NCBI GenBank assembly: GCA_051294905.1
Contig: CM119372.1
Span: 1,674,001-1,738,000, forward strand
Origin: Botryllus schlosseri
Taxonomy: Eukaryota
Length of the DNA: 64,000 nt
Reading direction: 5' to 3'
Shown: in pieces, positions 30,201 through 39,534 of the stretch
Layout: every line of letters begins with the position of its first letter
Position numbering within the stretch: the stretch's first letter is position 1
Made by a program: the position numbers and the translations under genes
The notes under the pieces: model-generated
Told to the model about the DNA's origin: nothing
Databases searched by the model: none
What the model saw: only the letters and a program-made list of their open reading frames with translations

Positions 30201-33200
30201 CTGAACCCCACAGGACAAATGCCATTCCGCAGGGAATAAAAGAATATTTTCCAGTAAAGCAATGCCAATTTGAAATCGTGTGTGCCTTTTAGTTTCGGCG
30301 ATTTCCATATCTTTCGACATAGCAGATATAGGAGGTCGCGAAATAGCATAATGTAACAACATCAATATACCAATGGGTCCGCCCAAAGATGTTCAACTCA
30401 TAGTTAGGGGTCCTACCTTTTCCAACACACCTCACGCAACACACAACACACAACACACTCAGCTCTACCGGTAAATCTGATTACGTGAGCAGAGAGGGGA
30501 TAAAAAATTGATAGCAAAATATATGCAATTAACTATCATATTGGCCAGGAATTATATAATTTTTTGGCGCTTCGCGCGTTTAGTCGAAATAAGGCGACAC
30601 ACTAAACATTAGACCCAATGTAGCTGATAAGTTGCAGGGAAAAGGCGTACAGGTTCAGCGGGGTTGAGGTAGTTCTGGGGCCCAAGACCTACGTTTTTGG
30701 GCGGGGCTGACAAAGTGCTGTTGCGGTCCTGGTGGAGAATGAAGGCTCGGGATAAATCTGAAGTGGGGAATGAAGACAAAAAGGTTGGGAACCACTGACT
30801 TAGTATATCAACATCAACGATAGGTCTAACCAGAACAATCTCGTATACACACGACCCGAGTGCGAGTGGACCATATGAAAATACCATTACAAATTATGAC
30901 CATGTCACCGCTCATCAGTGGCCAGGGAAAATAATGACCTGTTCGCATAATTTCAGCTTATATATACCGAAGTATCTTATCCTTGCTGATTGCTTCTATG
31001 TATGTATAGTATACTGGCCTATAGTTGTAGCCTACTGTAGTAAGACTACTGGTGAAATCGGAGATATTGACGTTGATCAAATTATGTAGTTGAGTAGACG
31101 GTCTCACATCATTTCGGCACATACGAACTCGATTGACTTTTGTTGTTTTCAGTCTTGAGCGCCAACGAAATTTGTATCTGGGAAGATTTTTGAAACGCGG
31201 AACCTACAAGGCTGTGAAAAATTTCACGCTGCAATCACACATGATCACCATTCACGATGAATACAATATTTGGGTGAGCCGTTTCACAATCACATACGCT
31301 TAACTATCTATTCGTAGGTTATAGTTTAATGCACAAATGCCATGAGTATGTACGCAATGATTCCAGTGCTCAAATCCGAATCGAGGGTTAATTGTAAATA
31401 TTCGAGTCGAGTAGTGAGAGATGATTTTTTGCGAGTACTGAAATTACACGCTCCATGCTACTCAGAGTTATATTATCAGCGATATCCGCAAAATCTTACT
31501 TGATAACGGTTACCCTGAACATGTCATCAACCGCGGCATAGAGAGGAAAGTAACGCAATTCAATGCATAAAAGTCAACAGAGCCTACCGAACGAACAACC
31601 AAAGATGTTTACATCCATCTACCTTGGATAGGGCCTATTTCTACCCGCTTTGAAAAGTAATTGATTTCAGCGGCCAATAAGTGTTACGACACAGTGAATA
31701 CCAACGTGATTTTCACGACAACGCAACTGCTTCCTGCAACACGTAAAGACATGCTTCCCGCACTTCAACAAAGCAATGTAGTTTACGAATTTAAGTGTCA
31801 CTGTGATCGTGGCTACGTGGGAAGAACGTCAAAGCGCTTGCAGGAACGCATAAATCAGCATGTCCCTAGATTCATTAAAACACGCTCGGTGAAAAGCTCA
31901 CCCTTAACTCATCCGCTCAAGTTTGATGCGGAACAATCAAAGGCCATAAATTCTGCAATTGGCAAACACTTTTTGGATAATCCCGTATGTGCGAAAAATT
32001 ATCGAGACGGCAGATTTCGCATACTCCGAAAAGGTCGCTCACACTTTCATTTGTGTGCCTTGGAGTCGACCTTTATCAAAATACACCAGCCAAGGCTGTG
32101 TCAACAAAAAGAGTTCGTGTATCATCTAAAAATAGTACATTGAACGCTCTCGTATTCGACATTTCGTGCTGGTGACGTCATATTTTGTGTTACGATTGTT
32201 GATATACGCTGTTCTTTTGAAATCTGTACTAGTTGCTAGGGCTGGGCACATTGATTCGAGTACTCGAATCTGAATCGAGAATTAATTTTAATGATTCGAG
32301 TCGTGTAGTAAAAGACAATTATTTCGCTCCTCACAACTGAAAGTTAATTCACTGACGAGAATTATAGTTTTGATACTATTTTCCACTGAGGAAGCCTTGA
32401 AACCTTAATTGACGTGTCGCAGCATACATAGTACAAAGTTACAAACCTTACTGGAAACATTTCCGAAGTCATGCTCATCTCACAATATTGTCAAGAAGTG
32501 CAATGGAATCGGAATACCAATGTATCTTTAATGTGGCGGATAACAGGCATTATGTCCTTCGTGGTGGCATAAAAGGTACATATTTGAGCTTTTACATAGT
32601 GCATTATGTTGTGACGTCATAATGAGTGATACTCGAATACTCGACTCGAAGCGCAATACGTGATTCAGATTCGAATCACTCAGATACTCGATTTTGCCCA
32701 GCCCTAGTAGTTGCTGACGATTACCCCTGACGAGTGTCAGCCGAAAATATTCGGGTTCATTTCAATATGAATATACTATTCAATTGTATCAGCGATAAAT
32801 ATAGTGTCATTGCTGTCTTCCCAAAATGGAAGCTTGAAACCTCGATTGGTCGGTGGTCGGTCGTGTCGCAGCATACGAAACATGTATCAAAGCTACGCAC
32901 GTTATTGAGAACACCATTTCTGTAAGGTTGTGATCAACCCACATCATTGTGACATAGTCCAATGAAGTAGGTATGGTGGAAAAATATGGTGGTATAGAGC
33001 TGGAGTCATATTCTGTGTGGTCGCATAATAGATACATATCTCAATTTTGCATATCATCCGTACGCTTCTGACGACGTAACAACAATTAAGTAATAGCCTA
33101 CTCGAATATTGAATAAATCGACTTGACGCGTAATGCTCGATTCGGGATCAAATCACTCAGGTACTTTATTTTATCCCTCCCTATACATATAAATATACCA

Positions 33201-36664: not shown

Positions 36665-39534
36665 CTAGCATCCTCTTCTGAATATTCCCTGCGATCCGCA
36701 GCGGTTGCATACTTTGTGTTTGCAGACCCAGCACAGTTTCATTTCTGAAAAAGAAGGTGACCATCACGTACGATGAAATGTGGGGGCCAGCGCTAGATAA
36801 TGTAACAAGCAGACTTATGGACTACCAGATGATTCTAGTTGTCTATGGTTAGACTCATTAAAGTGAAATTACGGCAATCAAATCTAATCAAATTTGTGAA
36901 ATGCTTCTATGTTCTACTTTCAATTCGTATCTCATTTCTGATTTCCGTGAAAATGCTGTAGGAAAACTGTAAGGCGCGAAACGAAGCAAGTTTGGTGTAG
37001 GCCTACAGCCAGGTTGTCAAACATACGGCCTGCGGGCCGAATCCAGCCCACGAAGCAATCCTGAAAAGATTCAAAACTACTTATATTATCCAGCATATTT
37101 CTAACAAATGCTTCGTAGGAAATATTTCCATTTATTAATCCCTCAAGACAGCAAATATCGACTATGTTCATTGTTCATGGGCCACATCATAACCATCCGG
37201 CAACGGTCTTGGGGTTTCACTCTAGTTTTCCTAAACGGCTTGTTCCACAACTAACACAAAGTTTTAGTGCGGTAATACTTACGAGACTGTCCTCCGAAAG
37301 ATCTGCACGAATAGGGACAGACGTGTTTGAGGCAAAAGCGACCGAAGAGATGCCTAGTTCGACTCTTCGTGCTTCGTTTCACTCTCTGCTTGTTATCGCT
37401 TGAATCCAACAAGTGATCGAGGTCGTTGAATAATTTGGAATTAAACCGCTGTAAAGAGAATATATCTGCGAACTAGGTCGATATTTCGTAATCGTTCGAT
37501 TAAAATTTTTATCAAATCAATTTCCCACACGATTGAGATATAATGAAAATGATAGAAGGGTGCCGAAGCGACTTGGAGCAGACACCACCCTGGCCTATAG
37601 CATGTAAACAAGAGGAAAGGCCAACATAAAAGGAAAAGTTTCTTGTAGGTTCAATGTACAATTGAATACTACATATTTCTATATTTCTACTAGTTTGTGA
37701 CGATCCTGATGAATGTCGACCGAAAATGTTCGGGCTCATTTCAATGTGAATATACTATTCAATTGTATGAAAGGATGGGACGAAAATTGATGAGTCGAAA
37801 CGCGAGGTTGATATGTCAGATCGAGGTTCGGGAAGCTTGAGGGCTGACTACGTAGTATTCATTCAGCAGAAATTGCGTGTATTTCGCCTGGAATGTGTAG
37901 CCTACGTACTGAACCTTCGACTTACAACCACGAATGGAATTACATAGGTCTGTGTTTTTCAATCTTTATAATTCATCCACGGCCAGGGGTCGTCAGCGAC
38001 GGAGTAATCAAGCAGGTTTTGACTACACTTGCACTGTTTACTCAAACGGTTATGTTTTGACTATACTTGCAATCCTGCTCGACAGTTTTGAGTGCGAAAC
38101 TATTATTTTTTGACTTTGGACTCAGTATAGTAGAATATGGCGTCAGGATATGATTCCATGTGAGTGAAATTGTCATAACATGTAGGAAAATTCTCATGTA
38201 TGACTATCACTACATATATTTACGAAAATTGCGGGAGTTTTTAGTGCCATTAGTCAGTTTGCGTCAATTGCTCCTTGTAATTACGAAATTGGAAAGAACA
38301 TTGTATATCAACAATCGTATCACAAAATATGACGTCACCGATTGTTGATATACAATGTTCTTTCCAATTCTCTACTAGTTGCTGACGATTACCCCTGACG
38401 AGTGTCAGCCGAAAATATTCGGGTTCATTTCAATATGAATATACTATTTAATTGTATATTGAAGTTCTGTACCTCCAAGAAGCCCTATTGTAATTGCGTG
38501 GAAATTTACAGCGTTTGTTGTTGTTGTTTGGTGTATTTGTATTGTATGGTGTTTTTCGACTGATGGTATGGTCATTTACACCAGGTCGATATTATGTACT
38601 ATGACTACTGAGATGCCGACTTGTAGCACGGCTCACTTCTCACGCTCACGCAGATCGGATGGCGGGGAGGAGAGGAGATAAACCCTCACACTTGGCAGAG
38701 GATTCTGGAGTTTGCCTGGCGGAACACCGGTTGGAAATCACACGTTAAATAAATAAATAGAACGCATCAGCCCGGTCTATTGTTGAACAAGTAATGTGGG
38801 TCATCGTTCGTACCTTTCTCGCGTATTTCTCCACATTCCGGAATTGTTGAGAATGACGAAGATCTTGGAAGGCGTCGAGAAGGGCCTTTGTTACATTTTC
38901 TACATCTATAAATTAAGAATTAATATCCTTTATTCCAGTAAAACTGGTAAACTGCTAAGGAAAATAGCGAGATTCAATTGAAATTTTAAAATTTCAGTAA
39001 TAGAGTCAAATTGTTATTCCAATGCAATCATGAAGACGTCAGAATGGTGAAGGATTGACAAGGGTTTTAAAGGTAGAGATGCTGGAAAATAAGGAATCAA
39101 AATTGCAGAAATTATGCTGTGATTTTCGGGTATAATGTGCCGATTAGTAGTAAATTAATATTATTATTTATGCTACAGCATTTATGCATTAGCAGTTTTG
39201 GCACTGTTGCAGGGTTCGTTGCATACCTTGATCGTAGTCGTCAAAGTTTGAGTAATCACTGTCATCTTCCACATTGTAATCTTGATCATCTAAACAACAC
39301 AGTAAATAGAATCAAGAATAATCGAATTGGTAATGTGTGCATCTGTGCATATACTGCATCACGAAGCCGTTGTTTACAGCGGTATATCTGTGTCAGGTTA
39401 TGTAATCAAGGTATGTTATTCTCACCTTCCTGGGCTGCTGATGGTGGATCTTTTTGTACCGCAACGTACCGCGCCAGTGTGAATTGGAACGATACCAGAA
39501 GTACAGCGTACATCGCAAATTTAGAAATTGCCAT
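36665..39534 (-). CDS. Secreted prepropeptide (169 aa): signal peptide, acidic pro-region, RVKR site, cationic 8-Cys mature peptide
   Basis: Five phase-consistent GT-AG exons: 39534-39426 (MAISKFAMYAVLLVSFQFTLARYVAVQKDPPSAAQE), 39289-39227 (DDQDYNVEDDSDYSNFDDYDQ), 38905-38814 (DVENVTKALLDAFQDLRHSQQFRNVEKYARK), 37448-37283 (RFNSKLFNDLDHLLDSSDNKQRVKRSTKSRTRHLFGRFCLKHVCPYSCRSFGGQS), 36744-36665 (QMKLCWVCKHKVCNRCGSQGIFRRGC*). Confidence 0.85.
38285..38483 (+). mobile_element. Solo Penelope pLTR with partial inverted duplication at its 5' side
   Basis: Matches the 3' terminal repeat of 31485-32786. 38285-38312 is the reverse complement of about 38339-38370. Confidence 0.8.
38381..38424 (+). ncRNA. 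Minimal type I hammerhead ribozyme motif
   Basis: Identical to the 32713-32756 motif. Predicted cleavage after C38420. Confidence 0.8.

Follow-up and report, generated by a model that had tools for sequence, protein, structure and literature searches.

A candidate pseudoknotted hammerhead ribozyme with a one-pair helix II in the pseudo-LTR of a Penelope-like retrotransposon of Botryllus schlosseri

Dimer cleavage of hammerhead ribozymes via a short palindromic stem III has been described (PMC4209133, PMC6765202, PMC6155905). The Penelope hammerheads assayed so far cleave poorly (PMC4209133). Helix II is at least 3 bp long in all 56 printed rows of Fig. S3 of that paper, and a review reports that Penelope minimal hammerheads are usually without tertiary interactions (PMC6155905). 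Those tested are slow, and one of them needs a protein and is dispensable for insertion in vitro. Other hammerheads, with a 1-bp stem II and a 6-bp pseudoknot, are active and need the pseudoknot (PMC3088659; PMC11300833). Cleavage is slow in viral hammerheads whose helix II is 1 bp long and which lack a tertiary contact (PMC13725137). Penelope hammerheads and pseudoknot hammerheads are each known; their combination was not found in the literature compared, and Lunse et al. 2017 may already hold it.

We analysed a window of 64,000 nucleotides from Botryllus schlosseri (contig CM119372.1), and all positions are those of this window. A preliminary description had reported a hammerhead-like repeat that was intact at 32713 and 38381 and damaged at nine other places, with a CUGAnGA/GAAA/UH core, a 4-bp stem I and an AAUAUU palindrome. 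Our reading of the sequence agreed. The motif is intact as described at 32713–32756 (+) and 38381–38424 (+), both copies have the core, stem I and palindrome, and every damaged place was recovered by BLAST and aligned, which gives 2 intact and 9 broken copies among 11. The predicted cut of copy 1 is after 32752. In copy 2, the leader strand of the pseudoknot helix (GCUGACG, 38381–38387, +, assigned by covariation with loop II) is followed by a 3-nt linker and the hammerhead core (38391–38424, +, predicted cut after C17 at 38420). The stem I strands lie at 38391–38394 and 38421–38424 and the CUGACGA box at 38395–38401. The single helix II pair is formed by G10.1 (38402) and C11.1 (38410) and encloses loop II (UGUCAGC, 38403–38409); GAAA (38411–38414), the palindrome AAUAUU (38414–38419) and C17 (38420) come after it. 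The core and pairing features of a type I hammerhead were found, namely C3 U4 G5 A6 N7 G8 A9, G12 A13 A14 A15 and U16 H17, an open-ended stem I paired beside the core, and the 10.1–11.1 pair. The CUGACGA of the leader was considered as an alternative core and rejected, since it has neither a 10.1–11.1 pair nor a stem I and is absent in two of the related families described below (C and E).

The 20-nt core with up to three mismatches gave 7 matches in the window and 0 in 100 shuffles. A sequence-free descriptor (core, 4-bp stem I and 7-bp leader/loop pairing) matched twice in the window and in none of 500 shuffles. No Rfam hammerhead family matched in the window at E up to 10, nor on six related loci, two of which carry ordinary Penelope hammerheads. 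Because this form is missed by Rfam and would be missed by descriptors with a multi-pair helix II, elements that were scored as hammerhead-less may hold one.

The repeat had been classed as a Penelope minimal type I hammerhead with a palindromic stem III, and this assignment is supported with refinements. Like the Penelope minimal hammerheads (PMC4209133), it has a type I core in the pseudo-LTR (pLTR) of an endonuclease-bearing element, a 4–5-bp stem I with a short palindromic stem III, and many truncated solo copies with inverted 5' junctions and a tail. However, in those hammerheads A9 is followed by an unpaired base and helix II is longer than usual, whereas the window motif has no extra base, a helix II of one pair and a covarying pseudoknot. 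In each of the five families, G10.1 directly follows A9 and helix II is a single pair.

In its fold, the motif comes closest to the crystallised PK hammerhead (PDB 8YDC; Zhan et al. 2024, PMC11300833). In both, helix II consists of G10.1–C11.1 only, and the partner of its loop lies on the 5' side of helix I, in a pseudoknot of 6 bp there and of a predicted 6–7 bp here. However, the partner strand of the PK hammerhead is the loop of a 5-bp helix IV hairpin, accompanied by an A-rich triplex linker and a long helix III, whereas the window motif has a free leader 3–4 nt from stem I and a 6-nt palindrome as stem III. Helix IV and the A-rich linker are absent here, and at most one or two closing pairs, invariant ones, are possible around the leader. 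The text of PMC11300833 does not mention eukaryotes, Penelope or retroelements. Perreault et al. (2011, PMC3088659) reported pseudoknotted hammerheads of types I–III, which resemble our motif in a Watson–Crick tertiary helix from the stem I side to stem II. In the accessible part of that paper, the active case with a one-pair stem II is of type II and metagenomic, and no link to Penelope is made; short-motif searches of its accessible supplements, in which the alignment is gapped, gave no match.

Frangione et al. (2024, PMC11167929) have described the Poseidon element PAc of Anolis, in which, as here, the hammerhead lies at the junction of pLTR and ORF start and genomic copies end within the first codons of the ORF (the tail). 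In PAc, stem II contains the ORF start and the ribozyme cuts 26 nt into the ORF, whereas the predicted cut of the window family lies upstream of the AUG and would spare the ORF. Since the ORF would stay whole, effects on translation should be measurable separately from coding-sequence damage.

The origin from Penelope terminal repeats, also proposed in the preliminary description, was confirmed by an RT-thumb/GIY-YIG frame before copy 1 and a Penelope-type N-terminus after the motif. The frame (31475–32143, +, Pfam) is the 3' part of a 5'-truncated Penelope-like ORF and contains the end of the RT thumb, the GIY-YIG endonuclease and two in-frame stops. Its GIY-YIG match in Pfam has an E-value of 4e-4, under the curated cut-off, and it is 34–42% identical to the C-termini of six longer homologs, of which all four that were scanned matched RVT_1. 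The window holds the thumb and endonuclease only; in full-length homologs, this C-terminus occurs together with RVT_1. With the endonuclease piece as query, no longer homologs were retrieved. A second and more decayed GIY-YIG remnant lies at 13227–13484 (+, tblastn E 1e-15).

After the stop codon, the start of the pLTR (32144–32236, +, BLAST and motifs) shows TGACGTCA at 32173, a TATA-like box at 32203 and the first leader bases. A 470-bp element (32237–32706, no strand assigned, BLAST) is inserted at the leader start; it has terminal inverted repeats and a target-site duplication (7/8) and does not belong to the Penelope element. Behind copy 1, the ORF of the element starts at AUG 32767 and is truncated without a tail (32767–32789, +, BLAST and translation). 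Upstream of copy 2, a pLTR promoter is predicted from spacing (38349–38380, +), with the TATA-like box 32 nt and an initiator-like motif 4 nt upstream of the leader; the spacing is similar in families A, B, D and E. Judging from consensus motifs, the TATA-like box and the neighbouring pLTR motif would have a promoter role. Behind copy 2, the ORF start includes the optional tail (38435–38483, +), and its translation resembles the N-termini of the full-length homolog P0026 and of families B–E; the contigs of all four sequence runs diverge from copy 2 at 38483. Copy 2 also adjoins an inverted duplicate of the pLTR start (38287–38339, −, BLAST), and inverted 5' junctions are typical of Penelope insertions (PMC8557442).

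Because a GIY-YIG frame precedes copy 1 and the following bases encode a Penelope-type N-terminus, the motif is placed in the 5' UTR, between the endonuclease stop of the previous unit and the start codon of the next. The predicted cut is 14 nt before the AUG in copy 1 and 3–41 nt before it overall. The repeat is the pLTR of an abundant Penelope-like retrotransposon, and it shows the features of C-terminal EN+ Penelope-like elements (PMC8557442), namely a pLTR with hammerhead, 5' truncation, inverted 5' copies and an optional tail. By eye, no CX2-5CxxC linker was seen before the endonuclease, and the Penelope/Poseidon clade has no such linker (PMC8557442); our RT tree contained no named reference sequences. 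Two other arrangements were rejected. The two intact copies are separate insertions rather than the ends of one element or a tandem pair, as there is no RT frame between them; and a non-LTR retrozyme does not fit, as there is no tandem hammerhead array and the copies are associated with the ends of endonuclease frames and the starts of ORFs.

We compared the window element (family A) with four related families, of which B was found by protein search and C, D and E by sequence patterns. These patterns left the five covarying loop positions free and fixed the core, so that only A and B test core conservation freely. C3–A9 and G12–U16 are kept in all five families, N7 and H17 vary as permitted, and the endonucleases are about 50% identical. 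Leader and loop II pair in 35 of 35 pair cells; five of the seven pairs are changed on both sides, and pairs 6 and 7 are invariant. Each leader forms 7 of 7 pairs with its own loop, and 2–4 of 7 when leaders of A, B and D are combined with loops of C and E or the reverse; slid registers pair in 11–49%. The covariation score was reached by 0 of 500 shuffles, a comparison in which five related sequences can outscore shuffles without any structure. Because the change between A/B/D and C/E can be taken as one 2-base shift per strand, the independent events may number only two or three. These groups are natural swap pairs for pseudoknot rescue.

The leader/loop II pairs thus passed the covariation test that had been suggested for the proposed 7-bp pseudoknot on a 1-bp stem II. 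The pairing itself is supported, but the seventh pair (G–U) never varies, so the helix is possibly 6 bp plus a wobble. In stem I, two of the four pairs are changed on both sides, the 10.1–11.1 pair is G–C in four families and G–U in one, and the palindrome occurs in three versions (AAUAUU, AAGCUU, AAAUUU). It is very likely that the pseudoknot forms in functional RNA.

More distant Penelopes have an ordinary long helix II at 17 of 34 loci, and none of them is knotted. A relaxed descriptor run over 344 sequences (578 kb) gave families A–E and no sixth, viral scans and phage BLAST gave no family member, and a genome scan with the full-length alignment returned only distant Penelopes. In one pattern search, 1 of 35 matches passed (L016, at the same place as L001).

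We favour, with moderate confidence, the explanation that the pLTR carries a type I hammerhead with a one-pair helix II and a predicted pseudoknot of 6–7 bases, which would cleave itself only as a palindrome-paired dimer. Cleavage probably occurs, and there is a reasonable likelihood that it would occur as a dimer. A TATA/initiator-like promoter would start the RNA 2–4 nt before the leader, and the pseudoknot would pre-fold the 5' "enzyme" half and replace helix II as in the crystallised PK hammerhead. Two RNAs would pair via the palindromic stem III, and each would cut its partner after position 17. The cut would remove about 45 capped nucleotides and leave the ORF whole behind a leader of 3–41 nt. 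Tandem read-through transcripts or a high RNA level would promote cutting, and the protein of the element may be needed as a chaperone. That a clade invests in a covarying tertiary helix suggests selection for real cleavage.

A further idea, which we consider doubtful, is that in one animal Penelope clade the ribozyme acquired the fast fold of pseudoknot hammerheads and became strictly dependent on dimerisation. Since the ribozyme occupies the first 45 nt of the pLTR transcript, it would then be a copy-sensing switch that strips the cap 3–41 nt before the start codon and converts a capped mRNA into an uncapped RNA with another fate (cap-independent translation or use as template). Cap-independent translation has been reported for viral 5' UTR hammerheads (PMC13725137).

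The pseudoknot could also be real while cleavage is slow, protein-dependent or incidental, the fold being mainly structural or regulatory at the RNA 5' end and dispensable for transposition. In the anole Poseidon element, the hammerhead required protein for cutting, hammerhead mutants showed normal insertion in vitro, and no RNA-seq ends were seen at the cut site (PMC11167929); moreover, Naiad elements thrive without a canonical hammerhead (PMC8557442). Competing hairpins are also predicted: nested folding of the window copy favoured a row of hairpins that hide the core, with probabilities of about 0.85 for a core/loop II hairpin, 0.14 for the leader/loop II helix and 0 for stem I. Two further points speak against the favoured reading: cofolding of two copies gave no active fold with these programs, which cannot score pseudoknots, and the AAUAUU duplex is weak (−0.2 kcal/mol). 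However, families whose endonucleases are about 50% identical have all retained the catalytic core and three separate helices, and in tested cases such a tertiary helix speeds cleavage by orders of magnitude (PMC3088659). We regard slow or incidental cleavage as unlikely, though a serious option.

It is improbable that the pseudoknot enables the ribozyme to act as a monomer in which stem III has one or two A–U pairs and the palindrome is incidental. The pairs A15.1–U16.1 and A15.2–U16.2 do exist in all five families (fixed by the patterns for D and E), and higher activity is reported for the PK hammerhead than for other hammerheads (PMC11300833). However, the searches did not fix the two middle palindrome bases, and these take three self-complementary forms (UA, GC, AU); as they are unable to pair within one strand, this points to pairing between strands.

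Loop II might instead be conserved because it forms an off-switch hairpin with the CUGAC of the core, the core-like leader being a duplication remnant or decoy. Folding predicts this 5-bp hairpin as the ground state of family A, and versions of 4–5 bp in B, C and D. However, it pairs in 56% of cells in the aligned register with no pair changed on both sides, family E does not form it, and loop II covaries with the leader and not with the core, which leaves this explanation very improbable; as a secondary off-state, the hairpin can coexist with the preferred dimer reading. It is scarcely credible that an amplified repeat resembles a hammerhead by accident: many copies in one genome do not speak for function and variation there looks like decay, but in four other families the core is retained while three helices change together, the descriptor retrieves these families and A alone among the 344 sequences, and the covariation largely refutes this reading.

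Within the host genome, variation looks like decay that hits core bases too. Among the variants listed for four contig runs, those at pseudoknot positions are each at about 1–4% by depth and unlinked, and run X1 shows variation of 4.7% at G12 and 4.9% at C17; these variants were taken as decay and did not enter the covariation analysis. The runs share no start or end and are uninformative on cleavage.

The window copies are truncated retrocopies. Damaged copies located by BLAST and alignment lie at 37687–37768 (+, stem I deletion, loop II altered), 23684–23756 (+, one leader and one stem I mismatch), 23570–23667 (−, loop II insertion, the inverted partner of the former) and 47910–48000 (−, palindrome and stem I broken). 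BLAST placed others at 10738–10857 (−, core changes), 10453–10560 (−, 3' strand of stem I deleted), 13560–13612 (−, 5'-truncated, without CUGA box) and 13617–13697 (+, likewise but with tail). In the copies at 10478 and 48072, leader position 7 is changed from G to A, which keeps pairing but is an expected CpG change and was left uncounted. The places 48072 and 49802 are two halves of a single split, core-mutated copy (5' half 48028–48094, 3' half 49802–49873, both +, BLAST), which have a 9-bp duplication in common.

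We found intact copies of the motif at 32713–32756 and 38381–38424 on the forward strand, just as the preliminary description had placed them. The 20-nt core pattern, with up to three mismatches, gave seven matches in the window and none in 100 shuffles. A sequence-free descriptor, combining the core with a 4-bp stem I and a 7-bp pairing between leader and loop II and holding no family sequence, gave two matches and none in 500 shuffles. Nine damaged copies were retrieved by BLAST of both intact copies against the window and then aligned, and every one of the nine damaged places previously described was recovered. 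The pieces found at 48072 and at 49802 have a 9-bp duplication in common and were taken as one split copy, so that two of 11 copies are intact. In the insertion that splits it with this duplication (48095–49801, about 1.7 kb), the inverted ends consist of 16-bp tandem arrays, and more elements are nested within. An Rfam search of the window returned no hammerhead family at E-values up to 10. The repeat is highly abundant, with a 211-bp stretch matched at 82% or more by 37,630 contigs from a single sequencing run, a figure that is not a copy number. Variation within the genome, as seen in contigs of host runs, resembles decay, and G12 and C17 are among the variable positions.

Four families (B–E) related to the window repeat (family A) were compared with it. 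Family B came from a protein-based scan, on a seemingly eukaryotic contig of genome G001 (L001); its endonuclease is 51% identical, and the motif lies about 150 nt past the stop. A pattern in which loop II was left unconstrained gave 11 matches in G001 and none in the reversed control. Of the two matches with stem I and a palindrome, one was again family B and the other was family C (L169), both with a 7-bp pairing between leader and loop II. A metagenome scan, whose pattern constrained no loop bases beyond the first two, gave at least 121 loci; after L243 was removed as a duplicate, the matches listed were 121 in 120 loci. Among these listed matches, 105 contain the leader within the contig together with stem I and a loop of 7 nt, and leader and loop pair at 7/7 positions in 102 of them and at 6/7 in three; the rest were broken off at contig ends (13) or unrelated (three). 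All but one of the 105 are copies of family D, which was counted once, and the remaining one is family E (L257). Families B, D and E lie directly 3′ of related endonuclease ends, and no such end was found within 1.5 kb of family C. Family C has its leader, loop and ORF start in common with family E. In both, the hammerhead is followed by a short hairpin (L169:1532–1575 in C; L257:197–298 in E, where it is repeated), which scored weakly, below the gathering score, against the histone 3′ stem-loop model. The 836-kb contig G001:C7 (L001, L169, L300), filed under a bacterial genome, carries three Penelope-type families and resembles animal DNA, and several further prokaryote-labelled records also hold Penelope frames with hammerheads.

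Covariation was analyzed with each family represented by a single copy, aligned in MAFFT and trimmed to the leader start. All 15 proposed pairs can form in all five families (75/75 cells), with two-sided change in eight pairs, and slid registers are 28–45% paired. The pseudoknot that the preliminary description had predicted is paired in 35/35 cells and changes on both sides in five of its seven pairs, which may represent two or three independent events, because one 2-base shift per strand can yield the C/E form. Its covariation score was reached by none of 500 shuffles, and its five changed pairs by 22 of 500; pairs 6 and 7 are invariant in all five families. Each leader pairs at 7/7 positions with its own loop and at 2–4 of 7 across the A/B/D and C/E groups, the register of this comparison being fixed on the shared CGAU without use of pairing. 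Stem I shows two-sided change in two of four pairs, and the palindrome occurs in three versions (AAUAUU, AAGCUU and AAAUUU). A rival hairpin, in which loop II would pair with the core, is paired in 56% of cells, and none of its pairs changes on both sides; pseudoknot-free folding of family A gave this hairpin a probability of about 0.85, within a row of hairpins hiding the core, as against 0.14 for the leader helix and 0 for stem I. Two-copy cofolding did not yield the active form, and the family A palindrome makes a weak duplex. A U just 5′ and an A just 3′ of the 7-nt leader occur in all five families (38377–38390 in the window), and three of the families have a second A-U pair. These pairs, which show no covariation across the five families, could be a vestigial helix IV forming a loop-loop kiss.

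The earlier reading was right in taking the feature as real, and its interpretation is supported and refined. The motif is a Penelope hammerhead of a form other than the canonical minimal one. Lunse et al. in 2017 reportedly found pseudoknots between pre-stem I bases and loop II to be common in hammerheads, along with about 150,000 short-stem-III variants; their set may thus include the present form, which bears directly on novelty. The Penelope hammerheads of Cervera and De la Pena (2014; PMC4209133) contain an extra base, and their helix II is long, with three or more pairs in all 56 printed rows, tunicates among them. According to Perreault (2011; PMC3088659), pseudoknots occur in all three hammerhead types, in some 40% of cases, and a type II hammerhead with a single-pair stem II was active. 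The PK hammerhead, whose structure was solved by Zhan (2024; PMC11300833), resembles the window motif in its single helix II pair and pseudoknot; however, it has a helix IV and a triplex linker, and the window motif has neither. The window motif would work like the PK hammerhead without being a member. Lopez-Galiano (2026; PMC13725137) describes type I hammerheads in the 5′ UTRs of viruses, some of which have a helix II of 1–2 bp and lack a clear tertiary contact, and ties cleavage to cap-independent translation. No description of a one-pair pseudoknotted Penelope hammerhead was found in the accessible parts of the literature, including PMC6765202, PMC6155905, PMC10085705 and PMC8557442 with its supplement, and "pseudoknot" is absent from the accessible part of bioRxiv 10.64898/2026.07.22.740005.

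Of 34 loci whose Penelope-type frames are more distantly related, 17 carry a hammerhead, always with a bulged base and a 4–7-bp helix II, and none has the knotted form. The G001 contig of L001 also holds a distant element of this ordinary type. At distant loci L317, L318, L321, L324, L326, L327 and L329, the minimal hammerhead has the U3-A8 core variant known from PMC4209133. In a tree of 33 C-terminal regions (20 rows without known motif; rows under 140 residues, family E among them, left out), one branch, with support of 93/82, below the starred level, parts three knotted-type rows from 10 ordinary-type rows. This suggests a single origin of the knotted form, and only suggests it, since the knotted rows had been picked up through their similarity to the query. 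The CX2-5CxxC linker is absent in the knotted clade, which would fit Penelope/Poseidon as described in the accessible part of PMC8557442.

The link of the repeat to Penelope, proposed earlier, is borne out by an endonuclease frame upstream and Penelope-type N-terminal coding 3′ of the motif. The frame (31475–32143, with two in-frame stops) lies upstream of copy 32713, has a weak Pfam GIY-YIG match under the cut-off (E 4e-4), and aligns to the C-terminal ends of six longer proteins (34–42% identity). RVT_1 was found in 5/5 long homologs scanned, four of them among these six. A second endonuclease remnant (13227–13484) precedes another copy cluster. On the 3′ side, AUG 38435 opens 16 residues matching residues 1–16 of the full-length homolog P0026 (7/16 identical, pairwise E 0.002), and the same stretch, containing Phe-Cys-Thr, lies 3′ of the motif in families B–E, for family C in an adjoining inverted copy. 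Published Penelope elements (PMC8557442, PMC11167929, as far as accessible) have the same anatomy of pLTR, the pseudo-LTR, plus tail. Contigs of 4/4 runs part from the second copy at 38483, with a common continuation of about eight letters. No RT frame was found between the two intact copies, which are separate insertions. Between the region downstream of the frame and the motif of copy 32713, a 470-bp inverted-repeat element is inserted with a 7-of-8 target duplication (32237–32706). It belongs to a non-coding, probably hAT-like family whose members have inverted repeats of 11 bp at their termini and a target duplication of 8 bp, and related copies lie near 579–1091, 2662–2866 and 48295–49606. 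Loop II of copy 23578 holds a 9-bp piece resembling both ends of this family, possibly an excision footprint.

Families A, B, D and E have a putative TATA-like box 31–35 nt and a putative initiator-like motif 2–4 nt before the leader, and B, D and E have candidate CCAAT boxes upstream; the names follow general consensus motifs. Family A has TGACGTCA at 32173, which is 62 nt upstream of the leader when read along the element, and its occurrence at 38330 is part of an inverted duplicate. The predicted cut precedes the AUG by 14 nt in A; this distance is 3 nt for D and 41 nt for E, and the family B copy has no AUG there. Most likely, the RNA would start just before the leader from a pLTR promoter, and the leader/loop II pairing would replace helix II. 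The palindrome would then join two RNAs, each cutting its partner after position 17, so that about 45 capped nt would be removed and the ORF left whole. The main rival is that the fold is real and cleavage is weak or protein-assisted and of little consequence, as was found for an anole element in the accessible part of PMC11167929.

An intact single-exon ORF for 4E-BP (eIF4E-binding protein) lies at 10098–10412 on the reverse strand (Pfam E 1e-37), its best named relative being from Ciona (58% identity), so that the animal host is probably a tunicate. A decayed pLTR copy on the same strand lies about 40 nt upstream of the ORF start, with a second copy 280 nt farther up, and a putative pLTR promoter might feed this gene. 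A near-perfect long inverted repeat (56799–57071 and 56619–57258, core about 270 bp) is related to 28465–29133, and a weak microRNA-model match is likely due to the hairpin alone.
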